Positions 2,292 to 19,283 of a stretch of DNA of 64,000 bases are shown here, piece by piece (position 1 is the first letter of the stretch; each line of letters begins with the position of its first letter). The notes under the pieces were generated by a model. It searched no databases. It was not told the origin of the DNA and saw only the letters and a program-made list of their open reading frames with translations. Source of the DNA: an uncultured Planctomycetia bacterium (GTDB taxonomy: Bacteria; Omnitrophota; Gorgyraeia; Gorgyraeales; Gorgyraeaceae). The translations under genes and the position numbers were made by a program. The stretch is taken from assembly GCA_964566255.1 (NCBI GenBank), contig CAZMID010000001.1, forward strand, positions 10,799 through 74,798, read 5' to 3'.

Positions 2292-3517
2292 TTTTTCTTC
2301 TTAACCTCTTTGGGTTTTTTATCCTTAGTTTCTTTTATCTTTTTCTTATCTAGAGGTTTCTTATCTTTAGCTTCATTTAACTTCTTATCCAGCGTCTCTT
2401 TAACTGAAGACAAGACCTTCTCAGCTGTCTTTTTCCCTACACCATCTACCTTTGTCAATGCCTTTAAATCTACTTTTGATAGAGATCCTAGCGTCTTAAA
2501 ACCTGCTTTTGTAAGAGATTTTTTTGTCTTTGGGCCAATGCCTTCTATTTTATCTATAGAGATCTTTTCTAATTTTTCCTTCTCAACCTTACTCCTTATG
2601 TCTATATTCCATCCAGTGAGTTTTGCAGCTAATCTTACATTCTGCCCGCGTTTACCTATTGCAAGTGAGAGCTGATCATCTGCTACTAACACTTCAGCCC
2701 TTTTTGCAGATTCATCTATCTTTATACTTGATATCTCTGCAGGAGATAAGCTCTGAGATATAAATTCCTGGATAATAGCACTCCAGCGTATAATATCTAT
2801 CTTCTCTCCTCCTAATTCCCTGACAATACTTTTAACGCGCTGACCCATCATACCAACGCATGCACCTACGGGATCTACTTTTTCATCCTTGGAGTATACT
2901 GCTATCTTTGAGCGTTCTCCTGCCTCTCTTGAAACAAATTTAATCTCAACTATACCTTCGTATATCTCAGGCACTTCTAGCTCAAACAACCTCTTTACAA
3001 GTCCAGAATCAGTCCTTGAAAGTAATATCTCAGGACCTTTTGCAGTCCTTTTTACTTCCATAATAAGGGCTTTTATTCTATCACCTTGCCTATATTCTTC
3101 ACCGGGTGGAAGAGCCCTCTTTGGTAATATCCCTTCTGCACCACGACCCAGATCAACAATGATTACACCCTTATCAAATCTGTGAACGCTTCCTGATGCA
3201 ATATCATGCACCTTATGTTGATATTCTTCAAACACAACATCTCTTTCTGCTTCACGAATCTTTTGTATAATAACCTGTTTTGCAGTCTGTGCAGAAATCC
3301 TTCCAAAATCCCCTGAAAGTTCTCCGCCTTCAGGTCCAAATACCTTGAATTCGCCTGTTTGTGGATCAAATTCAACCTTTATATCCATTATGTGTTTTCC
3401 AATTTTCTTGCGGGCTGCACTTATAAGGGCAGACTCTATTGCCCTTATAAGGATCTCTTTTTTGATTCCTTTATCCCGTTCAATGCTGTCTAATATCGTC
3501 AATAATTCCTGATTCAT
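2288..3517 (-). CDS. nusA: Transcription termination/antitermination factor NusA, with an unusual lysine-rich C-terminal tail.
   Basis: 409 aa starting MNQELLTILDSIERDKGI, with NusA N-terminal, S1 and KH regions. The C-terminus is KKPLDKKKIKETKDKKPKEVKKKK. Confidence 0.95.
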   Translation of the reverse strand: MNQELLTILDSIERDKGIKKEILIRAIESALISAARKKIGKHIMDIKVEFDPQTGEFKVFGPEGGELSGDFGRISAQTAKQVIIQKIREAERDVVFEEYQHKVHDIASGSVHRFDKGVIIVDLGRGAEGILPKRALPPGEEYRQGDRIKALIMEVKRTAKGPEILLSRTDSGLVKRLFELEVPEIYEGIVEIKFVSREAGERSKIAVYSKDEKVDPVGACVGMMGQRVKSIVRELGGEKIDIIRWSAIIQEFISQSLSPAEISSIKIDESAKRAEVLVADDQLSLAIGKRGQNVRLAAKLTGWNIDIRSKVEKEKLEKISIDKIEGIGPKTKKSLTKAGFKTLGSLSKVDLKALTKVDGVGKKTAEKVLSSVKETLDKKLNEAKDKKPLDKKKIKETKDKKPKEVKKKK

Positions 3518-3529
3518 TTTTATTCTCCT

Positions 3530-4012
3530 TTAGAACTCTGGTTCTTGTCTTGATCTTGTAACTTTCGAAAATGGTACCTCAACTATACCTTTCTTATTTA
3601 TATCTATCTTTATAGAATTATCCAATATCTCTTGGAGTCTTGCAATATATTCTTTTTTATCTAATATAGCTTCGTTCAGTGTAACTCTTATCATTCTTCC
3701 TTTTGCTCTTTCATAGTCCCTTTTTGTCTTAAATACCCTATCCATACCAGGGGAGTCCACTTCTACTATGTAGCTTTCTGGTATTAAGTTGGTCTCTTCT
3801 AAGATTTGACTAATCCTTTGATTTAACATCACGCAATCTGAAAGTTTTATCCCGCCAACTTTGTCTACTAAAAGTCTAAGGACTTGCCTCCTACCTTCTC
3901 TTCTATATATAATCTCTACGAGTTCAATGTCTTCTTCCTGTAAAACCGGCTCTATAATCTCTTTTAATTTATCTATCATGGGCAAATAAAAAAGCGGGTA
4001 CACTTCACCCAC
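3530..4012 (-). CDS. rimP: Ribosome maturation factor RimP.
   Basis: The internal sequence MIDKLKEIIEPVLQEEDIELVEIIYRREGRRQVLRLLVDKVGG...SPGMDRVFK is typical of RimP. The track ORF begins at a GTG directly after a stop codon. The true start may be the internal ATG (MIDKL, ~3979). An AGGGAGG SD lies 13 nt upstream of the GTG. Confidence 0.85.
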   Translation of the reverse strand: MGEVYPLFYLPMIDKLKEIIEPVLQEEDIELVEIIYRREGRRQVLRLLVDKVGGIKLSDCVMLNQRISQILEETNLIPESYIVEVDSPGMDRVFKTKRDYERAKGRMIRVTLNEAILDKKEYIARLQEILDNSIKIDINKKGIVEVPFSKVTRSRQEPEF

Positions 4013-4055
4013 TTAAAATTCAACACCTCCCTTTCGTAAGAGTAGTTATACTATA

Positions 4056-4089
4056 CTATATAGCATATATATCTGTCAAGGGAAAAATC
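4056..4089 (-). promoter_or_regulatory. Putative sigma70 promoter for the rimP-nusA-infB operon (TTGACA-18-TATAGT on the minus strand).
   Basis: Minus-strand TTGACA at 4084-4089 and TATAGT about 18 nt downstream. It sits between the giant-gene terminator and the rimP start, and is followed by an AGGGAGG SD. Confidence 0.35.
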
Positions 4090-4100
4090 CTTCTTGGAAT

Positions 4101-4152
4101 AAAAAAGCCAGTTCTTGCGTATAACAAGAACTGGCTTTAGACACCTTTTTTT
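4101..4152 (-). terminator. Rho-independent terminator downstream of the giant gene. The hairpin is flanked by T-tracts on both strands.
   Basis: Perfect 12-bp inverted repeat AGCCAGTTCTTG (4107-4118), loop cgtataa, then CAAGAACTGGCT (4126-4137). An A6 run precedes it on the plus strand, which gives a U-tract after the hairpin on the minus transcript. A T7 run follows it on the plus strand. Confidence 0.65.
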
Positions 4153-4178
4153 GATTAGGCTGGAAAAATAGCCTCTAA

Positions 4179-7100
4179 TTACACACCAGAGGCAAGTTCA
4201 TCAGCTATTTCCTTATTCAATCTATCACTAACCATATTTAATTCCATTCCGTTTGCAAAATCTTCAAGGAGTCCATCCAAGTTACTCTTGTCCTCGCTGC
4301 TTAAATTAAGCACCTGTATCCTTTTTAATTTAAGCTCATTTATTCCTCTTCCATTTACTACCTTTATCATATCAACATAACCTTCTAGATTAATAACCTT
4401 TTTATATTCATCCGCATTCATAGCTATTATTTCTATTGCATATTCTGAACTAGCATACCTGTCGCTAATCAATCTAATAAAACCTACATGTCCAAGCTCT
4501 ATTACTCTCTCCGCAGAGAAAGTAATAATTTGATTAAGCGGCCTCTTTGATTTTTCTAAATTATCAGGGCCTTTTTTTCCTTCGCGTATCATATCTAAAA
4601 CAGTATCCATTGTTTCCTCTAAGATAGTGTGTGAAGGGCCATACATAGGAATGCGAGAAATATTCATATCTGCGACTAACAATTTGTTTTTTCTTTCTTC
4701 TGTTATAGGTATTGTATCTAGTGCTCTAAAAATAGAAGATGCGATAGATCTTTGTTCGCCCTCATTTTCTTCTTGTTGTAAGTCAAGAAAAAGCTTCGTT
4801 AGTATATAATTATAGGTCAACTTTCCTGATTCTTCGAGGATTGCAAATGCCTCGTTACGGACATCAAGGTCAGGATCTTGTATGTCAGCACGGGCTTGTT
4901 CAATATGTTTTTCTTCAAGCTTAGGTGTTATCTCTACCTTTGATTCAACTCCTTCGAAGATGCGCGGTGTAATCCCATTTATTTTCTTATTAGATAGCTG
5001 GGCAGTAGTAGCGATGCGATGAGATTTATGATCATCCCCAACTGATGCCTCCCTAATAATTGAATATACAGCTTCGGTTTTACTCAATTCACCCAAGGCA
5101 GTTATAATAGCTACCATAATAGATACATTAGGATCTGAATCATCAACTGGTCCTTCAGATAAAGCTAAAATATGTTTATCTTTTGCTTCTTTCCATAATT
5201 CTAGAAGTTGTTTTTCCGCCAGAATCCCACCAAGACAAACTATGGCAGTTGTTCTCAATGGCATATAACGATCTTCATCTTTTGCCAATTTTAGTAAATC
5301 TGAAATTATACCTTCTTTTCTTTCTCCTCGAGACATTATTTTACCAAGCCTAGACTTGATAGGATCTAAAGTAGAATCATCATACTTTCCCAAATGATAT
5401 CCTAAATCAGCTGTAAGTTTTATTATTTCCTGTGTTTTTGTTAAAGATTGTAATACATCTCTAAGATTTTTAATTGATCCATCACGCATACTGCTATGAG
5501 GATCTGCTAATCCATCTTCAAACACATTAGGACCACTTTTAAGCATTACTGCACTATATAACTTTCTATTAAAATCAAATATAGTTTCATTACTTGCTAA
5601 TATATCTCTTGATGTTGAGACACTACCAGATATACTCGATGCTCCATCAGGAGAAATACTCATTCCTGCTGAAGTAATCATTGCTTTATGCCTAACTTGA
5701 TCCTTTGCTAATTCAATCAGATCTCTTGCAGCATCTTTATCTACGATAAAAGTAACCCTATCCTGATCTTGCAAAACTGATGCAGGGACCTCAGGTGTAA
5801 TTTTTCCTGCCACTGAGGCCTTAATAGCATATCTTTTCTTTGGCCCTGTAGCTACCAATAAGATCTTTTTTGCCTTTAAAATAGTAGATATGCCTTGACT
5901 CATTGCATAAGGAGGGACTGCTCTTTTATTTCCATCAAAATACCTGGAATTTGCGTTTATTGTACTTGAAATAAGCTCTACAACCTGTGTCTTTAACTTT
6001 AAAAAGTCTTCAAGGCTTATATCAAGCATTGCTTCAATAAAAGCAATATGACCCTCTTCTCCTATGCCAAGTAGCTGAAGATCTAGACCTTCTTCATTCG
6101 TTGATTTCATAATAAGATCTTCGTAAATCTCAGCTTCTAGTTCAGGAACATTTGCAAGGCCATCCATTAGATGAATATTGCTATCTTTTAATCCAGCATC
6201 TCTAATCATTGATGTCAGTATATGATCATAAAGAAAATGTCTATAAGATTCTTTATTATAATATTGCTCACGATACTCTCTTGAATATCCATATGCACTC
6301 CATACATACTCATCAAGGGCAAATATAACTACATTTGACCAGTCAATTTTTTCTTTTCTTGTAATTTCAATTAATTTTTTATATACACCTTCTTGTGTTC
6401 CACCAGTAGCTAAACCAAGAAAGGTCTTCTTTCCTCTAGCATTTTTTTCTTTGATTAGATTTGCGATTTCTTGTGCAGCACGTAATTCAGCATCATCTTT
6501 AGTCTCTGTTATATCTAACTTTTGTACCTTAGATATATCCCCGAGGGCATCTCCCCATTCAAAAGCCTGTGATGATGACACTAGCTCAACTAGAGATTTC
6601 ATATTAAAGCCAGTGGTTAGACTCATATTACTTGCTAATACAGTTGTTTCCTCTTTAGAGGTATCTGGCATATCGACCTGCTGTAAAATCTCTCTAAAAT
6701 AATACCCTGATCTATAATTCTGAGGTTTTTCTCTTGTTAAATACTCATCTATCTTAAGCTGTAACCCTGTCCTTTTAACAAGCTGATTTAGCGCTCTATC
6801 CATCTCAACAAGAGAATTCTCTTCCAGATGATTTCCTTCTACGGTGCTATTTACATTAGCATGGCCTAATTCGTGAAAGAGGCGTTCTGAAAGGATAGTT
6901 TTTACTGCCTGAGGGTAAGTAGGGTAAGCTAAAAGAAGGTCTTTGATGAAGCCTGCACTAAAAATGATTTCTACATCGCCGGTATCAAAGTTATAGTATC
7001 TTATAGAATTTAAACGTAAGCTCTCTGATACCATGACTTTTATTGGAGGTGCACGATTGTCTGGAGATAGGAACAAATCTTGTAAATATTCTTTCAGATC

Positions 7101-10100
7101 AGCATCACCTTCTACTAAACCCTCTAAATTATCCAGTGCATCATTTAACAAACTGGTTAAATTAAGGGCATTTTCACCTATAGGTGAAAATCTTTGCCCT
7201 TTAGATCTAGATAAATCCAACCCGCATTCCATATCATTTATGAAAGTATCTTTAATGTCAAAATAACTATCCAGCAGCAAATCTCCATGGCGTCTAGCAA
7301 AAGCCTTAAGCTTTCGTTTTTCTATCTGAGATCTATAAGTTGCAAATTCTGCTGCACTTCTTGCTCCTTGATAGGTTGGATCACGGCGGTCTATTCTAAT
7401 CTCTACTGGAACCTCAGGAAAATTTTCACTCAACAAGCTTTGCGCCTTATTAAATAGCATCTCGCCTATCCTGCCTCTAGCTAAAGCCCCAGTTAAAACT
7501 GTATACTTCATGTCAAAATATTTATATAACTCTACTATTGACAGCGCAAGATACTTACCAAGCTGTTCTATGGCATCCTCGGAATCGCTGTTTTTCTCTT
7601 TAAGCCTAGCTTCGATCTTTCGAACAAGTTCAATGCCTTCTAATGATTTGCTTTCTTGCGGGTAAAGCTCTTTTATGCCCCTGAAAGAAGCATAATATCT
7701 ATCCAATCCTTTTATTTTGCGATAGTCATGTTCACGTGCAAATGGTGACATATCAACAACCCTTTTTGCTAATTCAGTTAAATAAATAGAAGGTTTTAAA
7801 TTTTCATCCATAAAACCTCCTATCAAACTGTCGGACGGCGACAACACCAATACCTTTTCTCCTTCCAAATCCGTAAATAATAAGGTAGATCCAAAGGCTG
7901 TTACATTCCCGTCATTTTTTAAACTCACAGGAATTCTCTTATTTGTTAAGCTGTAAAATCTCTCTGATATCTCATCTGCCAAATTTTTTATCATATTGTA
8001 CTGCTGATCCCACCTATCAAACTCCAAAACCTTCATATCAAATAAGATGCTTGCAGATATGGCCATTTTATTATCCCTTACTGCCCCAGGCCAGGCTATG
8101 CCAATAGCATCTATATCTCTTAGAGCTCTTCCAGCATTATTGATAGATTCGTTAATAAGACTATACACTAAATAATCAATAAAATTGCTGTCTTCAAAAT
8201 TTTTCCGATCCAAAGTAAATTGTTCCTTATATAAAGGTTCGCCATTCTCCAAGATAACAATGTATCCGTGAGTCTTGCTAAGGCTTAAGCCTAATGTCAC
8301 ATCCTCATAGCGATTAAACCTGTAATAAACACCTTTCGCAGGACTTTCCTTTTTAGCCTGGATCCCTATCTCTGCTAGCCGCTGAGTATACTTGGTAATC
8401 TCGAAATCTACACCATAATATTGACTTAAATAACTGCTAACGGTCTCTGCCTCTTGCCCTTTGTCGAAATATTCGTCAAATGAGTCCTTTACAGCTTCAA
8501 AAACACTGTCCTCTGCATCAACTGCTACAGTGTCTGAACCCAACGTAACAGCTCCATTATTTATTAAAGTCGCTATATATCTGGATACAATAGCTAACTC
8601 TTCTTTGCTCATAAGCTTTGGGATAGATATATTCAAATCACGCTTCAATCTATCTTGTTCTAAAAACAACAGCGTAGTTTTATTTGTATTACCCGGATCT
8701 AATATCGCAATCATGGAAAAGATATCATCCCATTTGGTTATACTAAAGAGCTTCTCATGCTCTTCCCTCCAAATATCTGAAAAGAGTGTAGAAGCCGGCG
8801 ACTTAATTCGAGATTTATCTCCGTCAATTTCTTCTAGTGAATCCCTTAAGGCTTTATCCTTTTCCACTAAAACATCAAGAAAGAGATTAGCAAGCTGTTT
8901 CTTATCTGTAGTTCTAGATCCATTTTTCTCAAGTCTTTTTAGAAAATGCCTCGCCTCTTTCACATTGTTATCGAATATCCTAAGTAAGACCCCTTCCTTA
9001 ACTACTCCTTTTTTTAATAGAAAATCTGCAAATTTATAAGGGCTATAACCAGCAAACTTTTCATATTGCGCTAAACCTTCTGCCTTTAACCTCTTTTCCT
9101 GCCATGAGACTAGAGGCTCCTGATGTATATTATGTAAAGGCATTCCTCTTCTATTCAAATATGATATGTCCTTTTTTGTTATGTACAAAGCTCCTCTTTG
9201 CCTGCCAGCTTCTGAACGTGAACTATATAGTTCTGGGGGCTGAATAAAGGAACTGAGGTATGCCCGTTCTTCCTTGGTGACAGGCGCCTCATTCATGCCT
9301 CTAAAATTTTCATGCCTAAATAAAAAATATACATATTTATTCATATAAAGCATATCCTCTATATTAATTTCTTCCTTGCCTTTTTTGTCAACATATAAAG
9401 ATCCACCGTCTTGTCCTTCTAAACTAAAATAAAATTCTTTTCCATCACTTACCCTTACCAATACGTGTCTCAGAAGAGAAACTTCTTTTCTGCCAATCAC
9501 TTGTTTTTTTCTATTCAGATACTTAGGTTTGCCATTATCATCATTGCTAGAATGTGTATATTCAACATTTGGTGAGGTAGAATATATGGATTTACCTTCT
9601 TTTGTTACCTTCCATCTGAATAATGCCCCTGTGGCATTATCTATGAATAATGGGTTATGTTTTTTTGAAAAGTAATCTATATTATTATCATACAAAGGAG
9701 AGCCATCTACATATATAAGAGGGCTCTCTGTATTCACATAGCCCTCCTTTCCTTTACCTGTAGTAATAATATCACCTTTTTCATTTATAGGGTCTCCGAA
9801 TTCATTTGCCTCCCTTTTCTTCTGTTTAGTTTGAATCCAAGTGTCTATTTCCTTTGCGCTTGTCCTATTTACTACAATATCACTGAATATCTCACTGAAT
9901 AAAACCACTCTGCCAAGGCGTTTCTTTGCAATACGCTCTATCATCCTTACGCAATCTTCAACGCTATAATTATTCATCTCATCCATATTCACATGATTTA
10001 ATAAAAGTATCTTTTTGGCATCCTTCCTATTAATTAATGCCTCAATCACCCCATCTATAGCCAATTGGCAAACCAGACTTGAAAACAGACTTCCTGCCCC

Positions 10101-13100
10101 AACTATAATAGTACCTATTCTAGGGTCCTTTATAGATTCTATATATTGATTGCTCGGGCGAGGTAATAATTTAAAATTGTCCTTACTCACAGATACATCA
10201 ACATCTGCTATTTTTGAATCATGGCGCAGGACATCAATAAAACGCTGCCCATATACACGTGCGGGCAAAGCATCTTTTCTTTCTCTTACTATGAATTCTT
10301 CTACAGCATCTTTACCAAAAATCTCAACTAACCGCTTTTCCTCTTCCTTAGTTACTTCAGGATAATCTGCCCAAAGAATAGCTTCATTATAAGTAGGATA
10401 AAAAATTTGAGGGATGCCCACCTTTTCTATATCAAGTCCCCATACCATAGCCAATATATCATTGGCTAATGTCGCTTTTTCCTCATCTACTCCATTTACT
10501 CCTTTATCTCCGCATCTCCTATATGCCCTAAGTTTAAAATATACAGCAAGGTTATTGAGATTTCTTATGCTGTTGCCCTTTAAGGTAAAAGTAGTATAAA
10601 GGTTTTTATTCTTGGGTGAAAGGAATTCATTGTCAATTATCCTGGCTATATTTAACTGGTCCGACAAGAACGAAATAACACCTGGTGTATTAAAAAACTG
10701 CTCCTCCAACGGTCTATTTTTATCTTCAGCCAATAACAGTTTAATTTTTTCTAATAAAACTTCCTCTAAAGAATCCGACTCTTTATCTGGTCTGTAGTCA
10801 AGTAAATCTGCAAAGGTTGATTTCCGCATAACATCTGCCAGTACACCCGGACCATCTCCTTCAGTAGATACGCTTCCGAAAATAGGTCTTATAGATTCTA
10901 TAATTTTTCCTGTACTGCCTCCGTCATCAGTGGAAGGAGAGCCCACCTTAATATTTAAACCTAGTAGCTGGCATGCCCTAAGAGTTACCTCTTTCATGCC
11001 TCCTCCGCCTCCAATTACCAGAACCTGTGGAGGAATCTCTTTTCTAATCTCTATGGCTTCTTTTTCTTTATGCGACAGGACCCTATTATCCAAGACTCCC
11101 AAAATTACCCTAGCCACAGTATCTCCAGTAGAAAATGCCTCTTTTAGTATTTCACCGTCAAGGATTTCTTTAACTTGAGCTTTACTCTTATTAGAATACC
11201 TAAGCTTATATATATCAAGGAGTGTTTTATAATTATCACTTGTTTCGATTTCACGAATAGAAATAGGACGTCTTATTTCTGCATACCCTTTAAGCTCAGA
11301 GTGTAAAAAATAATTGTTTAGGTATTTTTCTATAACAAAATTTCTTCGCTGAGGAGTACACTTCAAGAGAGTACCTAAGAATCTAAAGTAACAGCCTGAC
11401 TTAAATGCTGGCCTTTGAGTCTCAAAGTAATCACTGATTACTTCTTGGGTGGTTTTAGTTCCTATAATCTGCTCGCTAACCAATTTATGGAACTCAATGT
11501 CTCTATGAATCAGTTTTCTCTCTTCAGCTCTTTCTTTTTCAACTAAGTCCAGCTCGTTATCATGGCCTAATTCATGAAAATATCTCTCTGCAAGAATTGT
11601 TACAACAGCCTCAAAATGAGATTCATAATCTTTAAGAAGTGTATCTATATAGGATTGGGAAAAGATTAATTCTACTTCTCCAGTACTAGCGTTAAAGTAA
11701 CGAACGGCGGTTAGGGGGAGCATGGATGATACCTTTACTCTTATTGCCGGGTCGTTGTTATCAGGCTTTGATAATACACTTGCAAAATATTCTTTTAACC
11801 CAGGGTCGTCCTCTATTATAGACTCTATAATTCCAAAAGATGCGTTTGAAAGTTCTGCTAATATTGATGCCTGCATATAATCATCCGCTGCTTTGAATCT
11901 CTGAGGTTCAGGCCTAGATAAATCCAATGTTAATTCATATTCTTCTTTGAAGGAACCTTCTAGTGCAGAATAAAAGATTATATTTCCATCACTAGCAAAC
12001 GTCTTTAGCAATCCACTAGCAGTATGTCTCCTCTCAACCTCTTCATAATCCAAAGACTCCTTTAAATCCTTATATGAAAACCCTTCAAACTGCTTAACAT
12101 CCCAGGTTTTCTTAGGGTCGACTTCGATATCTACCTCTACTTCTATGTTTCTTTTTGTTCCTTGGGTATCTACAGGAATATCGGTAATTACTTTGTCGGC
12201 ACGAGCTATTACTTTATCATCTGGCCTATAGAGCGCAACTGCCAAGCTTCCTGAATGTGCATCTATCTCATCTACGACACTGTTCACTATAACAGCGCCT
12301 TTTCTAACGATACCTTTATTTATACGTGTATTACCTAAAATAACAGCGCCTTTTTCTACAACTACGTCTTTACCTAATACAGCTTTATTGTCTATAATTG
12401 AGGAGGGCTGCATAAAAGAATATCCTGTAACCTGCCTCAATATGTCATCACTAAGAAGATTAGTGCATCCTAAGTAATAACGCTGGTTGGTTCCTAAGTC
12501 TGTTATATAGGTCTCTTTTCCTGTATATACGAATCCAAAATCTACTCCGGCAGCAGCTAATTCTCCTGCACGCTTGCCAACATCCTGATTTAAATCCTGA
12601 GCCTTTAAGTTGATATCTGGTCCATTGGGAATGCCTTTTGGATCAACAAATCTCTCAATAGCTTCCTGGTCAAGATGGTATACAGTAAGGTTATTGACAG
12701 GATGGTATACTGTATCAGAATATCTTTTTAAGTAATCTATCTCCTGGGGTGACTTTCTCTTATACATCGCTACAAATCTGCCGTTACTATCTACTTCTAT
12801 CTTGCCAAAATAATCGAATTCTGGATGGCCTAGTTCAACCCCGCCTCCTAATAACTGAACCCCATGTTCACCTAACCCTTTAACAGGCTCGGTTATACTG
12901 AATATCCTGTCTGTAGGCATACTTATTATACCTGTATCATTCTCTCCTAAAAGCTGCATACTCTGACGTATGGCCTGAAAGATATTAGGTTCGCCGTTTA
13001 TTGAACTCATAAACCCTTTATTGCCATAGCCATCTGAAGCAGTAAGAGGATATGTCCTCTTGCCGTCTCCTCCTGTCAAGACTGTAACTACACGCTCTTT

Positions 13101-16100
13101 ATCAAAATTTACCCCGCCCTTGTATAGTTTATCTAAGCCTCGTAAAAACGCCGAGAGGTTTCCATCAATATCATCATCCTGGACATAGATTATGACAGGG
13201 ACTGTTCCTTCTTCTCGTCTTTTCCTCATTGCATCCTGAATAACCGAATCATCAGTATCCTTATTTACTACCAGGATAACACTATTTTGAGGGATAACTT
13301 TCCCCCTTGCGCCTTCCAGAGACTGTTTAATTTGTTCTAGTCCGTCTGATTTTAATAAAAGAATAATGGCATCATGATACACTCTTGAATCAGCCAGCCC
13401 TTTTTCTAGGCGTGCCCTCTGTATGTGTATTCCATACTCTGGTGAATCGCTAAATCTGCGAGCTATCTCTTCTTCAGATAAAGGAGCGCCCTGCGTAGAA
13501 TAAAGTCCGTCTGCCACCTGCAGACCCATATATGCTGCACCTACTGTCTGTCCGAACCTTGCGGCAAATTCACTGTTAAATTCCTTGCTTATACCCTTTC
13601 CTACCTGTCTTACATAATCATCTTCTGAGGCGAGCAGTATATTTACTGTCTCTCTATCTCCTATTTCTTTGGTTAAATATTTCCTTGCTGATTCAGTTAT
13701 TAATCTACCAGCCATACCGCTGGTACACGCCCCGAACAATACAACATGTTCTATTTTAAGGTCTTTTAAGCTAGTTGCTACGGCTACTGCGAGATAAGAG
13801 CCAATGGTCTTAAAGATTTTTTCTGCTTCTTGCCTTTCAGGGTTTGTTTTAGGAAGCTCTAATTTACTCTGTACATACTTTAACTTAGGCCTGTTTCCGA
13901 TTGCCTTTTTAAACTCTTCTAGTTTACTCCCGGTTAAACTGGCCTTGACATGAGAGACAATATCATCTTTATTATCAAGATTAATTTTTTCTTTGGCAGC
14001 GAATCTTCGGGCTACAATCTCTTCAAACCCTTTATCAAAATCAGGCCATACCTTGCGGGCAAGATGTAAAACGCCTCTTTGTGAAGTATACTGCTGAAGA
14101 GCGCCTCTTATCCTCAACCCCTCATGATATCCAGCTTCACTGGACAAATCTATACTACATTTACCCATCTCACCAAGATAGTCATTCAATTGACCTTTAT
14201 TATCTACATATCCTGCGGCCAATCCAGTGCCTAAGCTTAAGGCCAATACATTATTTAGCCCTAATGTACCGGCTAAAGACAATGCTGCTGCATCTCCATC
14301 ATTTAATACTCCTACAGGCACTCCTCCCAATGATTCGCTTATGCGCCTTCCCATAGGAGCCACCTTTGTCCAAAATTCTTCAGAACCTATTCCTCTATAT
14401 GCCCTGGTACCTTCCTGAGTAATCCTTCCATTGACAACAGCCCCTGCTGTACTAAGGCCTATGCCATCAAGTTTAACCTCTGAAATACCAGCAGTATATA
14501 CTCCTTCTATAAAGCTTTCTATTTCCTCAAGAGGGGTATTGGCATTATGCGCCAATTCTTTGAGTTTTCCTTTCAATTCACGTTTTGATCTAGAGCTAGT
14601 TTTTTCAACCTCTATGGCGGCCTTGGCTAAGCGTACCATGGTGACAAAATAACTTAAATGTTCATCTGAATTCTTGAATTTATACGACTCCCAGTTTATT
14701 TCCTTGGCAAAGATACAGCGGCCTTCTATAAATGAAGCTACCTTTACATCGCTTGCGCCTACATCCATTCCTACAATCATACCTCTATGATAATCTTGGG
14801 CAGGGGCTGATTCTTGCTGACTTAACTCGATATCTTCTGAATCAATCTTATCTGCAGACTCTATCTTAAACTTAGTCTCATATATACAGCTAAAATAAGA
14901 AGGGATACGGCTGTAGAGACCTTTTGTAAATAAACGTTCTATTCTCTGGTATAGTTCCTTAGGAGCCTTTATCTTTATGCCTTCAGCGCCAATACGTGAT
15001 AGGGTACTTGCGATCTCGAGGCATAAATAATCAGCCAATTCATCCAATTGGGTATCATCCATTCTTGTAATCGCAGGAATAGCAATTGACCTTCTGTGGT
15101 AGACAGCACCCTTGCTTGTAAGGCCTATTTCCACAGAGTTCTCTGCAGATAATTCCTCATATTGACGTTCCCTTTCAGTGATGGGTGCAAAGGATATACC
15201 TTCATTACTTGCTAATACGTCTGATTCTTTTCTAGTTAAATAATGTTCAACCTTGCCAAAGAAGCGTTCCACATCCTGTTCTGCATCTTTGACAGTTGAA
15301 TCAAATGTAATAAGCATTGTCTTACGGCCTCTATCTACTGTAGCACCTATTGCAGCTATCAGCTGCGCCCTTATTAAATTATCGCTAAATTCTAATGCGT
15401 CGGGTTGCTCCATAACATCGGGCATAAATAATGTATCAACCCACATGTCTTTACCATATTGCTTGTTCTGTTCAGTAGAATGAAGCTTATCAGGTGCTGG
15501 TGAAATTTTAGAAGCTATCTTAAGGCCATTTGTAAATATTTCAGTTTTTGCTGCTTGCAAGATACCTTCCATATCTTCTGTCATTCTTCCATAAAACCCG
15601 AATTCCTTTGCCTCAAAATCAGGTTTTGACTCTAATATTTTTATAATCGCTGCTGCATATACTGCAGGCGCATCATTCATATCTGAACCTAATTTTCTAA
15701 CTCCAGTCTCGAGGTCATCCTGAGTAAGAATACCAGCTGCAATCAACCTGTCATAATATAAATTGAGCTTACCAAATGAAACACTCTTCCAGTCTTCTGG
15801 AATCTCTACTTTCTGATCTGACCCTAAGTCATCCATTATCTTAGTTAGAATCTTTTTATAATCCTGTACTCCTTCTTGATCAACAGCGCAAATATCCCAT
15901 AGATAAGCCACTGTTATTACAGATCTCTGAAAGCCAAGCATTATACCTCCCAGAGAATCTATATCATCAACATCTATTTCAAATACAGGGTATCTATTTT
16001 TCTTCAAATGGCTCCAGAATTCATCATTGGTCTTTTTGTCTCCTACATTTATCCTCAAAAACACCCTGTCACTATCTTCAACATCCTTAAGGGACGCGAT

Positions 16101-19100
16101 AGAAAGATCCTCATCATAAAATAGGCTGATGCCTTTTCCTTCCTTTCCTAAAGATTCTTCAATGAGCTGCTCTGCCCACACAGGCAGATTTTGAAGTTCC
16201 TTTGGCACCATTAGAGTCAACTTATCCTTACCTAATTCAGCTGCCATATAGTAAAGATAGGCACCCAAGATTATAAAGGTATCCTCGTTTATATCTTTAA
16301 TATCATTCATCTTCAGCGCTACCTCAAGTATTTTTTCTACTTTTTCAGGCGCCGAAATCGCCAATACAAGGAGAAATACCAATGTCTGAGGGCTAGTAAA
16401 CCTGCCCCCTATATCTCCTTCTCCATTAAGCTGTATCTCTCGCTGTTCATAACCATGTTCATCCATTGGAGAACCTTTATCAGTTATAACCCACATATGA
16501 TCTTCGGGTTCAATATTAAATTTCTTAAATAAGTCAAATAACTCTTCAAAATATCCTTTCTGATCTACGGTTTCCCTAGTAGTTCCTGATTTACTGATAG
16601 GAATGACAAGGGTTTCTAATAATGCCTTTTCTAAAGAACCAGCATCTTCTGCTATTACATCAAACATATACTTTATTTCTTCAGGGGTTGTTGTTCTAAA
16701 ACTAAATATCTTATAGCCTCCTGGCTCTCCAAATGTTATTTTAACGACCTGAACACTTAAACCAGATCCGCCCATTCCACAGAATATAATATATTTAAAC
16801 TTACTTCTTATCTCTTCAGCATCGTCAAGCACACTCTGTATCTTTTCAGGATTTTTAAGTAGCCATTTCAGATTCTTAACGGTCCAACCTGCGCGGTTCT
16901 TTGGGGGTTCTTCAGGGTTACTTGCATCAAAAATCGCCTTAAGCATTTTCGAAGAAACCAAATCCTCTGCTTCCTCAAAAGATGTTCCATAGACTGCATG
17001 CATCTGGCCGCGTATATCTTCCTGACCTAATTGCAGCAAAATATCATCTAATCTGGTATCCTCCATAATTCCAGTATCTAAGGTATGATTACTTGCTAAC
17101 ACATCTGATTTCTTAGCTTTTGCAATTGTAAAAGTTGCCTCAGCTGCTGGAGATGGTTCATATGATAGATCCATTAATGCCTTTTTCATTGCAGGACCAC
17201 TCAGAGTAGGATCAATTTTCTCTCCAGATGCTACACCTATAAAATCACCTATATCTGTAACTATGGTTTCTTTGGTTTGAGTATGAACTATTATTATGCT
17301 CTCTGGCTGGACCATTACATTAATATCACCTGTAAGCGTCTCTCGGAATTGAGGCGTAAACATCTTCTGCAGTTTTGCTGCTAATTTTTTACTTTCTATA
17401 CCTTTATCCCTAAGAACAGCTACCCCAACAGAAACTACTGCCATGAGAATTCTTTGAGTCTTTAATTCTTTACCGCCTTCTATATTAGGAACAACCTTGT
17501 TATTAAAATCATCCACAAAATCTGGTTTTACAAATGTAGCTATGATAGGGCACCTTAAAGTATCGTTTAAACCCTTAAGAAGTTCTTCTATGGGTTTACG
17601 TTTTCCTGAGAGTAGAAAATGATAATTCTCTTCATCTATATCAGTAGATGAATAAGGGGATACCACTACATAGGAATAGCCTTTTTCTCTTAGAAGCTTT
17701 GTGATACCTTTTGTGTGGAATCCTCCTGCAACAAGACTAGCTACCTTAGCATCGCGCTTTTCTATCTCAGAAACAGAATTTCTTACCATTGCAACGTCAC
17801 GCTGTCTTACAGTCTTATAGAAGTCCTCAAGCCCCTGAAGATGAAAATCTATGAGATTTGGATTATAGTCTATAAAGGCGGAGATATCATGTTTTTTAAG
17901 GGCTGGCTTTAGAAAGGATTTAAAAAAACCTACTTTGTGAGACTCTCTATTAGCTAAGTAATAATCAAGTTCTTCATTTGATACCTTTAAATTAAAAAAC
18001 CCTTCCAAGAATTTGATGTTCCGGAGGGCTTTAATGAATGTCTTTTGTTCGTCAGTCTTTGCAAGTCGCATCTTCACTTCATAGGTAAGATCTTCCATTT
18101 CAGTGAAGAGCTTCGTAGAATCTAAAGAGTTTACCTTTGTGAGATAGCTTAAGAAGTCATTAAGATTAGGGTATTTTGAGATCTTATCCGGGATATGTTT
18201 TAAGGCTAGATCTTTTAAATAGCTATAAAATGAAAAAGGGGATATCTTCTGTTCCCTAAAAAGCTTGGCCTTTACCATCAATGCATCTTTATCTTTGCGC
18301 AATTTTCTGCCTGAAAGCTTTGCCTGCAGATTTAAAAGTAGATTCTGAGATTCCTGCATTACCTTTACTTGATTAATCTTTTGTTCCTGCTCTGTAGCCT
18401 CAGTTAAAAGTGAGATGTTTCTATACTTATCTGTGGAGATGTCGAATTTTCTTACATAGGAAGTAAGATGTTTTAAAAATGCGTCTGTTTCTATTTTTTC
18501 ATTCTCATAATCAACTTCTTTTTGGTCTAAATTTAGAAGCTCTTTTGAATAAATCTTAGATTTAAGCTGATCTAATGCCTTCTGAGCCTGAGAGATAAAG
18601 ACCTGGGATTTGGGGGAGAATTTCATAATGCGGTTAAATTCTATGATGTTCTTAAAATAGATATCTCTATCTTCTATCCCCCAGATAGGTAGGTCTGGGT
18701 ATTTTGTAATAGAGAGGTATTCTTCTCCTGTTAGTTCACCTGAATTTATAAATAGACGTGCTGTCTTTTCCCTTATCTCATAATCTGGAAAGCTTGACAC
18801 GCTGGATGTATCTACTTCTCCATCTGCTCCTTCTGAGCAGACTAAGCCCATATTGTAATCTTTTAAAAGAATCTCTAAGATACTCGCAAGATTAAGTTCT
18901 GCCTCTGGGTTTGTGTGTAAATCCTGTATGTGGACTATAAGGCGTGAATCTTTTGAAGGAGATTCATATACTTCTGTGACCCTTCCTAATTCTGACGGTA
19001 TATGTATCTGAGAGAGGTCTTTTAAATGGGATGAGAGGACGACTTTTGCTTCTTTTCTATGCTTTTCTGCCTTCTTAGTATCTTCTCCTTCAAAGATAGA

Positions 19101-19283
19101 CTTTTTCTTATTGAGGCGATCTTCTCGCTGGGTACTAAGCTTTTTATAATCTACTTTTTTGTCCTTGAAGAGAGAGCGACGACTTGGAGCTCCATAAGCA
19201 GTATTAGTGCATATAAAAGCTATAAGAACTATTACAGAAATAATCTTTTTAGCTGTCTTACAATTCATATATCTTCCTCTCAT
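4179..19283 (-). CDS. Giant (5034 aa) secreted multidomain protein carrying a PGI-like SIS domain, two ROK sugar-kinase domains, a sugar-1-P nucleotidyltransferase with LbH, a CofD/YvcK domain, a NagB-like deaminase domain and HEAT repeats. It also has two HELGH zincin-like motifs inside an internally duplicated block.
   Basis: The reading frame is uninterrupted for 15,105 nt in DNA at roughly 33% GC, which cannot occur by chance. The N-terminus MRGRYMNCKTAKKIISVIVLIAFICTNTAYGAPSRR is a Sec-type signal peptide. An AGGA SD favours the second ATG at 19268. Domain motifs, with approximate aa positions: GMGGSG and DIGGRFTS (PGI/SIS, ~800-1250); MIVGMDVGASD and VLNDGDAAALS (ROK 1, ~1500-1800); VLTGGDGKRTYPLT plus hexapeptide repeats (NTP transferase with LbH, ~2060-2470); FHELGH (2570 and 4137); VIGGGGG...STDDGGSTG...IIVGAGSLFSS (CofD/YvcK, ~2740-3130); NDGNVTAFG (ROK 2, ~3690-4010); LGLATGGT...FALDEY...GIGEEGHIAF (NagB-like, ~4270-4520); DPDLDVRNEA-type HEAT repeats (~4640-4800). 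Confidence 0.9.
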   Translation of the reverse strand: MRGRYMNCKTAKKIISVIVLIAFICTNTAYGAPSRRSLFKDKKVDYKKLSTQREDRLNKKKSIFEGEDTKKAEKHRKEAKVVLSSHLKDLSQIHIPSELGRVTEVYESPSKDSRLIVHIQDLHTNPEAELNLASILEILLKDYNMGLVCSEGADGEVDTSSVSSFPDYEIREKTARLFINSGELTGEEYLSITKYPDLPIWGIEDRDIYFKNIIEFNRIMKFSPKSQVFISQAQKALDQLKSKIYSKELLNLDQKEVDYENEKIETDAFLKHLTSYVRKFDISTDKYRNISLLTEATEQEQKINQVKVMQESQNLLLNLQAKLSGRKLRKDKDALMVKAKLFREQKISPFSFYSYLKDLALKHIPDKISKYPNLNDFLSYLTKVNSLDSTKLFTEMEDLTYEVKMRLAKTDEQKTFIKALRNIKFLEGFFNLKVSNEELDYYLANRESHKVGFFKSFLKPALKKHDISAFIDYNPNLIDFHLQGLEDFYKTVRQRDVAMVRNSVSEIEKRDAKVASLVAGGFHTKGITKLLREKGYSYVVVSPYSSTDIDEENYHFLLSGKRKPIEELLKGLNDTLRCPIIATFVKPDFVDDFNNKVVPNIEGGKELKTQRILMAVVSVGVAVLRDKGIESKKLAAKLQKMFTPQFRETLTGDINVMVQPESIIIVHTQTKETIVTDIGDFIGVASGEKIDPTLSGPAMKKALMDLSYEPSPAAEATFTIAKAKKSDVLASNHTLDTGIMEDTRLDDILLQLGQEDIRGQMHAVYGTSFEEAEDLVSSKMLKAIFDASNPEEPPKNRAGWTVKNLKWLLKNPEKIQSVLDDAEEIRSKFKYIIFCGMGGSGLSVQVVKITFGEPGGYKIFSFRTTTPEEIKYMFDVIAEDAGSLEKALLETLVIPISKSGTTRETVDQKGYFEELFDLFKKFNIEPEDHMWVITDKGSPMDEHGYEQREIQLNGEGDIGGRFTSPQTLVFLLVLAISAPEKVEKILEVALKMNDIKDINEDTFIILGAYLYYMAAELGKDKLTLMVPKELQNLPVWAEQLIEESLGKEGKGISLFYDEDLSIASLKDVEDSDRVFLRINVGDKKTNDEFWSHLKKNRYPVFEIDVDDIDSLGGIMLGFQRSVITVAYLWDICAVDQEGVQDYKKILTKIMDDLGSDQKVEIPEDWKSVSFGKLNLYYDRLIAAGILTQDDLETGVRKLGSDMNDAPAVYAAAIIKILESKPDFEAKEFGFYGRMTEDMEGILQAAKTEIFTNGLKIASKISPAPDKLHSTEQNKQYGKDMWVDTLFMPDVMEQPDALEFSDNLIRAQLIAAIGATVDRGRKTMLITFDSTVKDAEQDVERFFGKVEHYLTRKESDVLASNEGISFAPITERERQYEELSAENSVEIGLTSKGAVYHRRSIAIPAITRMDDTQLDELADYLCLEIASTLSRIGAEGIKIKAPKELYQRIERLFTKGLYSRIPSYFSCIYETKFKIESADKIDSEDIELSQQESAPAQDYHRGMIVGMDVGASDVKVASFIEGRCIFAKEINWESYKFKNSDEHLSYFVTMVRLAKAAIEVEKTSSRSKRELKGKLKELAHNANTPLEEIESFIEGVYTAGISEVKLDGIGLSTAGAVVNGRITQEGTRAYRGIGSEEFWTKVAPMGRRISESLGGVPVGVLNDGDAAALSLAGTLGLNNVLALSLGTGLAAGYVDNKGQLNDYLGEMGKCSIDLSSEAGYHEGLRIRGALQQYTSQRGVLHLARKVWPDFDKGFEEIVARRFAAKEKINLDNKDDIVSHVKASLTGSKLEEFKKAIGNRPKLKYVQSKLELPKTNPERQEAEKIFKTIGSYLAVAVATSLKDLKIEHVVLFGACTSGMAGRLITESARKYLTKEIGDRETVNILLASEDDYVRQVGKGISKEFNSEFAARFGQTVGAAYMGLQVADGLYSTQGAPLSEEEIARRFSDSPEYGIHIQRARLEKGLADSRVYHDAIILLLKSDGLEQIKQSLEGARGKVIPQNSVILVVNKDTDDSVIQDAMRKRREEGTVPVIIYVQDDDIDGNLSAFLRGLDKLYKGGVNFDKERVVTVLTGGDGKRTYPLTASDGYGNKGFMSSINGEPNIFQAIRQSMQLLGENDTGIISMPTDRIFSITEPVKGLGEHGVQLLGGGVELGHPEFDYFGKIEVDSNGRFVAMYKRKSPQEIDYLKRYSDTVYHPVNNLTVYHLDQEAIERFVDPKGIPNGPDINLKAQDLNQDVGKRAGELAAAGVDFGFVYTGKETYITDLGTNQRYYLGCTNLLSDDILRQVTGYSFMQPSSIIDNKAVLGKDVVVEKGAVILGNTRINKGIVRKGAVIVNSVVDEIDAHSGSLAVALYRPDDKVIARADKVITDIPVDTQGTKRNIEVEVDIEVDPKKTWDVKQFEGFSYKDLKESLDYEEVERRHTASGLLKTFASDGNIIFYSALEGSFKEEYELTLDLSRPEPQRFKAADDYMQASILAELSNASFGIIESIIEDDPGLKEYFASVLSKPDNNDPAIRVKVSSMLPLTAVRYFNASTGEVELIFSQSYIDTLLKDYESHFEAVVTILAERYFHELGHDNELDLVEKERAEERKLIHRDIEFHKLVSEQIIGTKTTQEVISDYFETQRPAFKSGCYFRFLGTLLKCTPQRRNFVIEKYLNNYFLHSELKGYAEIRRPISIREIETSDNYKTLLDIYKLRYSNKSKAQVKEILDGEILKEAFSTGDTVARVILGVLDNRVLSHKEKEAIEIRKEIPPQVLVIGGGGGMKEVTLRACQLLGLNIKVGSPSTDDGGSTGKIIESIRPIFGSVSTEGDGPGVLADVMRKSTFADLLDYRPDKESDSLEEVLLEKIKLLLAEDKNRPLEEQFFNTPGVISFLSDQLNIARIIDNEFLSPKNKNLYTTFTLKGNSIRNLNNLAVYFKLRAYRRCGDKGVNGVDEEKATLANDILAMVWGLDIEKVGIPQIFYPTYNEAILWADYPEVTKEEEKRLVEIFGKDAVEEFIVRERKDALPARVYGQRFIDVLRHDSKIADVDVSVSKDNFKLLPRPSNQYIESIKDPRIGTIIVGAGSLFSSLVCQLAIDGVIEALINRKDAKKILLLNHVNMDEMNNYSVEDCVRMIERIAKKRLGRVVLFSEIFSDIVVNRTSAKEIDTWIQTKQKKREANEFGDPINEKGDIITTGKGKEGYVNTESPLIYVDGSPLYDNNIDYFSKKHNPLFIDNATGALFRWKVTKEGKSIYSTSPNVEYTHSSNDDNGKPKYLNRKKQVIGRKEVSLLRHVLVRVSDGKEFYFSLEGQDGGSLYVDKKGKEEINIEDMLYMNKYVYFLFRHENFRGMNEAPVTKEERAYLSSFIQPPELYSSRSEAGRQRGALYITKKDISYLNRRGMPLHNIHQEPLVSWQEKRLKAEGLAQYEKFAGYSPYKFADFLLKKGVVKEGVLLRIFDNNVKEARHFLKRLEKNGSRTTDKKQLANLFLDVLVEKDKALRDSLEEIDGDKSRIKSPASTLFSDIWREEHEKLFSITKWDDIFSMIAILDPGNTNKTTLLFLEQDRLKRDLNISIPKLMSKEELAIVSRYIATLINNGAVTLGSDTVAVDAEDSVFEAVKDSFDEYFDKGQEAETVSSYLSQYYGVDFEITKYTQRLAEIGIQAKKESPAKGVYYRFNRYEDVTLGLSLSKTHGYIVILENGEPLYKEQFTLDRKNFEDSNFIDYLVYSLINESINNAGRALRDIDAIGIAWPGAVRDNKMAISASILFDMKVLEFDRWDQQYNMIKNLADEISERFYSLTNKRIPVSLKNDGNVTAFGSTLLFTDLEGEKVLVLSPSDSLIGGFMDENLKPSIYLTELAKRVVDMSPFAREHDYRKIKGLDRYYASFRGIKELYPQESKSLEGIELVRKIEARLKEKNSDSEDAIEQLGKYLALSIVELYKYFDMKYTVLTGALARGRIGEMLFNKAQSLLSENFPEVPVEIRIDRRDPTYQGARSAAEFATYRSQIEKRKLKAFARRHGDLLLDSYFDIKDTFINDMECGLDLSRSKGQRFSPIGENALNLTSLLNDALDNLEGLVEGDADLKEYLQDLFLSPDNRAPPIKVMVSESLRLNSIRYYNFDTGDVEIIFSAGFIKDLLLAYPTYPQAVKTILSERLFHELGHANVNSTVEGNHLEENSLVEMDRALNQLVKRTGLQLKIDEYLTREKPQNYRSGYYFREILQQVDMPDTSKEETTVLASNMSLTTGFNMKSLVELVSSSQAFEWGDALGDISKVQKLDITETKDDAELRAAQEIANLIKEKNARGKKTFLGLATGGTQEGVYKKLIEITRKEKIDWSNVVIFALDEYVWSAYGYSREYREQYYNKESYRHFLYDHILTSMIRDAGLKDSNIHLMDGLANVPELEAEIYEDLIMKSTNEEGLDLQLLGIGEEGHIAFIEAMLDISLEDFLKLKTQVVELISSTINANSRYFDGNKRAVPPYAMSQGISTILKAKKILLVATGPKKRYAIKASVAGKITPEVPASVLQDQDRVTFIVDKDAARDLIELAKDQVRHKAMITSAGMSISPDGASSISGSVSTSRDILASNETIFDFNRKLYSAVMLKSGPNVFEDGLADPHSSMRDGSIKNLRDVLQSLTKTQEIIKLTADLGYHLGKYDDSTLDPIKSRLGKIMSRGERKEGIISDLLKLAKDEDRYMPLRTTAIVCLGGILAEKQLLELWKEAKDKHILALSEGPVDDSDPNVSIMVAIITALGELSKTEAVYSIIREASVGDDHKSHRIATTAQLSNKKINGITPRIFEGVESKVEITPKLEEKHIEQARADIQDPDLDVRNEAFAILEESGKLTYNYILTKLFLDLQQEENEGEQRSIASSIFRALDTIPITEERKNKLLVADMNISRIPMYGPSHTILEETMDTVLDMIREGKKGPDNLEKSKRPLNQIITFSAERVIELGHVGFIRLISDRYASSEYAIEIIAMNADEYKKVINLEGYVDMIKVVNGRGINELKLKRIQVLNLSSEDKSNLDGLLEDFANGMELNMVSDRLNKEIADELASGV
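6640..7135 (-). repeat. Copy B of the duplicated HELGH module inside the giant ORF (aa ~4050-4215).
   Basis: LKEYLQDLFLSPDNRAPPIKVMVSESLRLNSIRYYNFDTGDVEIIFSAGFIKDLLLAY...ILSERLFHELGHAN...RSGYYFREIL. Confidence 0.6.
11330..11850 (-). repeat. Copy A of an internally duplicated ~170 aa module with an FHELGH motif inside the giant ORF (aa ~2480-2650).
   Basis: LKEYFASVLSKPDNNDPAIRVKVSSMLPLTAVRYFNASTGEVELIFSQSYIDTLLKDY...ILAERYFHELGHDN...KSGCYFRFL aligns residue by residue with copy B. The nucleotide string atggcctaattc[a/g]tgaaa is shared. Confidence 0.6.

Follow-up and report, generated by a model that had tools for sequence, protein, structure and literature searches.

MARTX toxins and large clostridial toxins cut their own inter-effector linkers after Leu by means of a cysteine protease domain. 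Omnitrophota encode some of the longest known proteins, and a class of these giants has been described under the name 'multi-enzyme metabolic cluster' (bioRxiv 10.64898/2026.06.07.730766). The Archaeovorins preprint leaves the cleavage of such giants open, with cleavage points unknown, and this lack of cleavage points blocks their structural analysis (bioRxiv 10.1101/2023.11.21.568195). Neither preprint contains a junction, linker or LASN motif, and a literature search pairing LASN with 'cleavage site' found no description of the motif. Here we examine a 64-kb stretch of contig CAZMID010000001.1 (the window) whose minus strand carries one giant gene, a single open reading frame (ORF) of 5034 amino acids (aa), and in particular the tetrapeptide LASN, which occurs four times in the encoded multi-enzyme fusion protein.

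LASN-x-small-(L/I) is, we are highly confident, a short linear motif with a function in the linkers that separate the modules of an Omnitrophota fusion family. Its form is LASN-x-(G/N/S)-(L/I), placed in flexible linkers between the enzyme modules of fusion proteins that bear a signal peptide or membrane anchor, and the giant gene encodes a member with four such junctions. The gene and the four copies are as follows.

4179..19283, minus strand: giant gene, single ORF of 5034 aa for a multi-enzyme fusion protein, Omnitrophota-type, between proS and rimP-nusA-infB
17088..17099, minus strand: LASN copy 1, aa 729-732, KKSDV-LASN-HTL, at the junction of the N-terminal region and the PGI-like module
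15204..15215, minus strand: LASN copy 2, aa 1357-1360, KESDV-LASN-EGI, 7 aa past the last PGI-like helix
6627..6638, minus strand: LASN copy 3, aa 4216-4219, EETTV-LASN-MSL, at the junction of HELGH domain B and the NagB module
5589..5600, minus strand: LASN copy 4, aa 4562-4565, TSRDI-LASN-ETI, after the Ser-rich linker that follows NagB and before the HEAT-like region

The preliminary description of this DNA had reported one nucleotide word in four copies, and these are found where it placed them: the plus strand of the window has four copies of the 14-mer ATTACTTGCTAAYA, starting at 5589, 6627, 15204 and 17088, and 100 dinucleotide-preserving shuffles gave none. Its residue numbers also hold; its pairing of them with the coordinates does not, the gene being on the minus strand, where ascending coordinates correspond to descending residue numbers. 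The plus-strand word is the antisense of (GTG/GTA/GTA/ATA) TTA GCA AGT AAT, which translates to [V/I]LASN in frame with the giant ORF, with the same codons, TTA GCA AGT AAT, for LASN in all four copies. The 12-nt core has four exact copies in the window, none with one mismatch and a chance-level number with two, and six-frame translation of the 64 kb gives no LASN beyond these four. A hydrophilic K/R/E/S stretch precedes every copy, as had been described.

From the amino-acid composition of the protein, 0.1 LASN and 0.014 [VI]LASN are expected, against four observed. One could suppose that the repeat arose by chance or merely follows from an AT-rich codon bias, given that the window has 35% GC and that Leu, Ala and Asn are most often encoded there by TTA, GCA and AAT. 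Yet the probability that all four LASN share one codon set is 5e-6 under the codon usage of the gene, 1.8e-6 under that of all 20,240 window codons and 9e-7 when codon-pair context is included (i.e. about 1e-6 to 5e-6), and the enrichment in relatives given below is likewise contrary to this explanation, to which we assign next to no credence. The four identical words are beyond the reach of chance or codon bias, which are excluded.

Homology searches assign the giant gene to Candidatus Omnitrophota. A search of related giant and multi-module genes, which the preliminary description had proposed, found the same motif at their domain junctions: it is present at module junctions in each of the first four related loci (L001, L003, L006 and L007), and one L001 protein, P0003, additionally ends ...SLASNV. 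Beyond the window there are 24 instances, spread over some 14 multi-enzyme fusion proteins of Omnitrophota, many of them encoded at the proS-rimP locus. Among 33 related multi-module proteins (44.5 thousand aa, kaa), LASN was observed 13 times vs 0.84 by shuffling, and LASN..[LIVMF] 11 times vs 0.22 expected. Among 58 GTDB loci, chosen as those with homologues of the N-terminal domain of the giant protein (N-domain), ORFs of 700 aa or more (154 kaa) contain 18 LASN, vs two in other ORF segments (129 kaa). Across all long ORFs, LASN..[LIVM] was observed 29 times vs 0.90 expected, a 32-fold enrichment, and single-substitution variants (LSSN, MASN, LAGN, LASD and others) were close to background. 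An unbiased 4-mer screen for variable context returned LASN as the commonest strongly enriched 4-mer (28 vs 3.5 expected, in 15 proteins).

A motif profile was built from 28 non-redundant instances, four from the window and 24 from relatives, every one of which is situated between modules. The residues L, A, S and N are fixed in it by definition. The residue after LASN (+1) is E in 12, A in four, S in three and H, M or Q in two each. Position +2 is small (G in 12, N in five, S in three), and +3 is aliphatic in 28/28 (L in 15, I in 11, V and M in one each). The upstream sequence is hydrophilic and often Lys-rich; an example junction linker reads KESDVLASNEGIS. The four core residues and the aliphatic at +3 are nearly invariant, and the codons and surrounding linker vary freely while the LASN peptide is kept.

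This variation separates constraint on the peptide from constraint on the nucleic acid. The 24 LASN instances of the relatives are encoded by 23 different 12-nt words, none of them the coding-strand word of the window, TTAGCAAGTAAT; three different words occur in L016, four in L017 and five in the metagenome-assembled genome (MAG) JAHIEN01 (L006 and L065). The family-wide constraint therefore acts on the peptide, and the idea that LASN is a conserved peptide feature is borne out. Selection on an RNA or DNA word, which had been offered as another possibility, fails as a general explanation on the same 23 words, and also because no consistent RNA structure exists: folding of 80-nt windows around the four copies gave no common or unusually stable structure (z of +1.4, +0.8, -1.4 and -0.3). 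The suggestion of recent modular duplication fails as well, since the DNA flanking the four copies is unrelated, copies 1 and 2 excepted, and the modules are thus not recent duplicates.

Within the giant gene, the identity of the word nevertheless calls for an account of its own. The LASN serine codon is TCN in 23/24 instances of the relatives and AGT in 1/24, vs AGT in 4/4 here. A switch from TCN to AGY at an invariant Ser takes two substitutions by way of a non-serine intermediate, and four independent switches to one AGT codon are improbable. Copies 1 and 2, the pair that brackets the PGI-like module, are alike at 22/24 nt (AATCAGAYGTRTTAGCAAGTAAT) with both mismatches outside the core; two of the three adjacent synonymous sites differ between them, and none within the core. 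Since the synonymous sites of the core are identical while neighbouring ones differ, and AGT is used four times, the word identity points to a single founder from which the junctions were copied or converted, or else to a constraint on the nucleotides in this lineage. We would see in it a separate, lineage-specific layer, in which a founder junction may have been copied or converted, rather than a conserved nucleic-acid signal.

Perhaps the DNA word is itself functional in this lineage only, as a microhomology or recombination junction for the insertion, deletion or exchange of modules, all junctions then descending from one founder. The four identical 12-mers (P ~1e-6 under codon usage), the change of serine codon family, which is hard to reach by point mutation, the placement of copies 1 and 2 as a direct repeat around the PGI module, and a module content between proS and rimP that varies from genome to genome would all suit such a role. 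We still judge it improbable: the words of relatives differ within one gene and within one MAG, 12 nt is under the usual length for homologous recombination, no further copy occurs in the 64 kb and the neighbourhood of the gene showed no recombinase, and public contigs are all 100% identical, so that no rearranged variants are seen.

Two other properties of the word can be recorded. The coding-strand word contains TAG and TAA in its two other frames, and together with its flanks it makes a small palindrome, ATTA-N5-TAAT (4-bp ATTA..TAAT). Both are real, yet neither needs GCA or AGT and neither is kept in relatives, and we rejected hidden stops and palindrome as an explanation of the word.

The remaining features of the giant protein, against which the positions of LASN can be read, are these.

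19185..19283, minus strand: signal-peptide-like or anchor segment, aa 1-33, the sole membrane-spanning-type hydrophobic stretch of the protein, kept in relatives
17559..19001, minus strand: N-terminal domain, aa ~95-575, erythromycin esterase (Ere)/ChaN/TraB-like alpha/beta fold (fold search), candidate hydrolase
15234..17069, minus strand: PGI-like module, aa 739-1350 (Pfam, homology, AlphaFold2)
13623..14381, minus strand: ROK-family kinase module 1, Pfam stretch aa 1635-1887
12240..13088, minus strand: weak match to sugar-1-phosphate nucleotidyltransferase and hexapeptide repeat, aa ~2066-2348, all under curated cut-offs
11364..12011, minus strand: HELGH (HExxH) domain A, aa ~2425-2640, sharing 38% identity with copy B
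9849..11024, minus strand: CofD/YvcK-like module, aa ~2754-3145 (Pfam and NCBIfam)
7398..7694, minus strand: ROK-family module 2, Pfam stretch aa 3864-3962
6669..7316, minus strand: HELGH domain B, aa ~3990-4205, by its likeness to copy A
5757..6503, minus strand: NagB (glucosamine-6-phosphate isomerase) module, aa 4261-4509 (Pfam)
5196..5525, minus strand: possible HEAT-like repeats, aa ~4587-4696, weakly supported, under the Pfam gathering score
4182..4520, minus strand: family-specific C-terminal domain ending ...ELASGV, where the tail consensus of relatives is (I/L)A(S/E)G(V/I)

That the copies mark module boundaries is supported. In BLAST comparisons with four different relatives, the alignable part of the PGI-like module starts at giant residues 724-729, i.e. 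at the motif, and the NagB alignment to L007 has LASN at the homologous junction. Stand-alone PGI-like proteins of ~600 aa have their start Met a few residues past the motif position and end where the giant module ends, shortly before copy 2. In L016, L017 and L030, 9/9 LASN are located between domains recognised by Pfam (PGI, enolase, glutamate dehydrogenase, UDPGP and PGM). An AlphaFold2 model of giant residues 690-1400, from a 59-sequence alignment (mean predicted local distance difference test, pLDDT, of 85; predicted template modelling score, pTM, of 0.85), has a confident PGI core at residues 739-1350, with most blocks above 90 pLDDT. Copy 1 falls in a segment of pLDDT below 50 and copy 2 in a stretch of pLDDT 48-63 seven residues beyond the last helix; both are thus in predicted unstructured linkers on either side of the PGI-like core. 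Of the modules that had been said to follow the four copies, the PGI-like, NagB and weak HEAT-like ones do so, and copy 2 meets ~160 unannotated residues before the ROK module rather than the ROK module itself. Genome and metagenome contig scans gave no close relatives of the NagB region, and when junction 1 was compared with those of P0121, the closest relative, homology did not extend beyond the N-domain.

A sharp motif that lies in exposed linkers and is dispensable for module folding is most likely recognised by a sequence-specific enzyme. The preliminary description had listed a recurring processing site among its readings, and this is the most economical reading of the junction motif. 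We accordingly propose, as the likeliest function, that LASN is a putative endoproteolytic processing site of the fusion protein, a proposal to which we give a little less than an even chance. The cut would fall at or next to the Asn, and cutting would yield separate or nicked modules, which would make the protein a bacterial counterpart of a polyprotein.

The conservation and linker position of LASN fit equally well with a motif that is not cleaved, the main rival, which we hold to be possible but doubtful. Here LASN would be a docking or recognition motif, bound by a scaffold, a chaperone or an export or modification enzyme, or else a structural linker element, for instance one capping the first helix of a module, and the fusion protein would stay whole as a membrane-tethered metabolic assembly. 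Every chain of the family retains a single N-terminal anchor and a single C-terminal domain, a sign that the functional unit may be the chain as a whole, and the C-terminal tail (I/L)ASG(V/I) resembles LASN, so that one binder could accept both as ligands. However, helix caps and passive linkers do not normally need four invariant residues and a fixed aliphatic at +3; stand-alone and many fused modules fold without LASN. The tail itself, ...LASGV, was considered as a fifth copy and set aside, being the conserved C-terminal tail (I/L)A(S/E)G(V/I) of the family and not LASN; this tail resembles a class I PDZ ligand (S/T-x-aliphatic-COOH).

Several points weigh against LASN as a processing site. 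Many fused PGI-like relatives, P0001 included, are without LASN, and likewise several N-domain ORFs of more than 3900 aa; fusion thus does not depend on LASN, which only a part of the family has. The low pLDDT of the linkers is due in part to the few aligned sequences that cover them. A function of the peptide leaves the four identical DNA words without explanation. Searches of Pfam, NCBIfam and PDB sequences matched no recognised protease family, and an Ere/ChaN/TraB-like fold is no proof of a protease, since Ere enzymes are esterases and ChaN binds haem.

That fold belongs to the N-domain, which on the processing-site reading would be a speculative candidate protease, acting in cis or in trans (it also exists as stand-alone secreted paralogues). 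It is kept at 48-77% identity with invariant H123, E151 and H523, and it shares the alpha/beta fold of the Ere/ChaN/TraB/TIKI superfamily in a fold search; it has no Pfam, NCBIfam or PDB-sequence match. In Omnitrophota it is a multigene family (loci L008-L065), often stand-alone at 560-580 aa, where it keeps the signal-like segment, and with several paralogues in a genome (at least five copies in MAG UBA10183), and it also heads ORFs of more than 3900 aa.

The HELGH domains had instead been proposed as the cognate protease, i.e. as zinc proteases cutting VLASN in cis. There are two of these HExxH-bearing domains in the protein, ~215 aa each and 38% identical to one another, each downstream of a ROK module, and the distance of 78 aa from copy B to LASN copy 3 was given correctly. 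Against this, no BLAST match to the domain was found in the protein or locus of any LASN-bearing relative, nor any match at E<=1e-3 in a search of 5.8 billion proteins, and neither domain has a Pfam or NCBIfam peptidase-family match. A domain present in one protein only is not the general partner of a motif spread over ~15 proteins, and we consider this proposal very improbable.

A fuller picture can be drawn, in which anchored or exported chains of glycolytic and sugar-nucleotide enzymes carry LASN as cut sites, the cutter is the N-domain or a dedicated protease, and the word doubles as a seam for module exchange. As a whole we regard it as unlikely.

The setting of the gene bears on the family to which it belongs. 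Its neighbours are uppS-cdsA-dxr-rseP-ispG-proS upstream and rimP-nusA-infB downstream, in synteny with several MAGs, and the module content between proS and rimP is different in every genome examined:

Window: one 5034-aa ORF
L003: ORFs of 1079 aa and 2201 aa, the second with PPDK
L006: ORFs of 1211 aa (N-domain and PGK), 1948 aa (PGM…PGI) and 487 aa
L001: ~2170 aa, broken by a stop or frameshift in the PGM module

What the fusion family has in common is an N-terminal hydrophobic segment, tiled modules of sugar and central-carbon enzymes, and a ~110-aa C-terminal domain ending (I/L)A(S/E)G(V/I). The window protein has the N-terminal signal-like segment, the tiled modules, the C-terminal domain and the syntenic position. 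In an exhaustive profile search the C-terminal domain had only 20 matches in 1.84 billion representative proteins, and it always ends multi-module proteins or stands alone as a small protein. Over its first 13.5 kb the window is 100% identical to contigs from five independent samples, on which the same gene has identical gene calls (5029/5034 aa), and every public contig with the gene, looked up through NusA, is 100% identical to the window. The population is present in samples JGI 3300009374 and 3300009405, ENA ERZ23499057 and ERZ23499079, and SRR8062331.

We also note some peculiarities of this gene and its relatives: (i) All window ORFs of at least 200 aa outside overlaps are encoded by the minus strand, and the whole window (1-64000) has a negative GC skew. 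(ii) At L001:9700-10120 a stop or frameshift interrupts the phosphoglucomutase-like module of the syntenic gene and leaves two ORFs, of 728 and 1404 aa, through assembly error or as a pseudogene. (iii) P0194, P0196 and the first L001 ORF, all without the N-domain, bear a second conserved motif right after the signal-like segment, (S/T)LR(V/I/P)P(L/M)(A)(G/S)N, with a LASN-like end (e.g. SSLRVPLAGNEQL and DKLRIPMAGNKTV). (iv) The 3214-aa protein at L017:751-10392 (PCTH01000062.1) has Enolase_C (aa 1639-1936) before Enolase_N (2065-2173), and ELFV_dehydrog (618-774) ahead of ELFV_dehydrog_N (909-1008). Judging from this Pfam order, the enolase and ELFV dehydrogenase modules look circularly permuted within the fusion.

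For the giant proteins of Omnitrophota, LASN offers concrete coordinates at which cutting can be looked for, and a rule for dividing such proteins into modules for structure prediction. The architecture of the family (anchor, modules, C-terminal domain) was previously undescribed, and its locus is conserved in place and hypervariable in composition. The family holds divergent PGI-like and other glycolytic modules, which standard annotation may miss. If the processing-site reading is true, Omnitrophota would make enzyme batteries as single chains that are later cut at LASN.

Several known motifs resemble LASN in part. The bacterial lipobox is L-[AS]-[GA]-C; L-A-S would stand at -3 to -1 of it, and some relatives have LAGN or MAGN soon after the signal peptide. 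We rejected a lipobox, its essential +1 Cys being replaced by Asn in 28/28 and the copies lying at aa 729-4562, most of them thousands of residues from the signal peptide. An intein or Asn-cyclisation junction was rejected, as +1 is mostly not Cys, Ser or Thr (E in 12/28) and the giant protein has no Hint or intein Pfam match; an N-glycosylation sequon, N-x-S/T, because S or T stands second after N in only 5/28; and a sortase signal (LPXTG/LAXTG) because the motifs are internal, the pattern differs and the sole membrane-spanning-type segment is N-terminal.

Among processed proteins, the sites of viral polyproteins (e.g. picornavirus 3C, potyvirus NIa) share with LASN a very long ORF and a short, sharp peptide recurring at module boundaries in variable linkers. 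Unlike them, the present case is a chromosomal bacterial gene for sugar and central-carbon enzymes, and LASN is at some junctions only, four in a protein of ~10 modules. The MARTX toxins are likewise large modular bacterial proteins whose exposed linkers contain a small conserved site, and L plus a small residue resembles their P1 Leu and small P1'. The modules of the giant protein are of housekeeping type, however, the motif is four residues plus the +3 aliphatic, and no cysteine protease domain or toxin repeats were detected: Pfam gave no Peptidase_C80 match for the whole giant protein at E<=0.01, or at E<=1 over 4952/5034 residues searched in segments. Set beside the Ere/ChaN/TraB/TIKI superfamily, the N-domain differs in having no sequence-level match and in its ~300-residue helical insert. 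A further comparison is with the published Omnitrophota giants. The window protein is small among them, at only 5 kaa, but it is from the same phylum, has the same N-terminal signal peptide or anchor and weakly supported HEAT repeats, and like them joins many unrelated Pfam domains of sugar metabolism (PGM, ROK, PPDK and others) in one chain.

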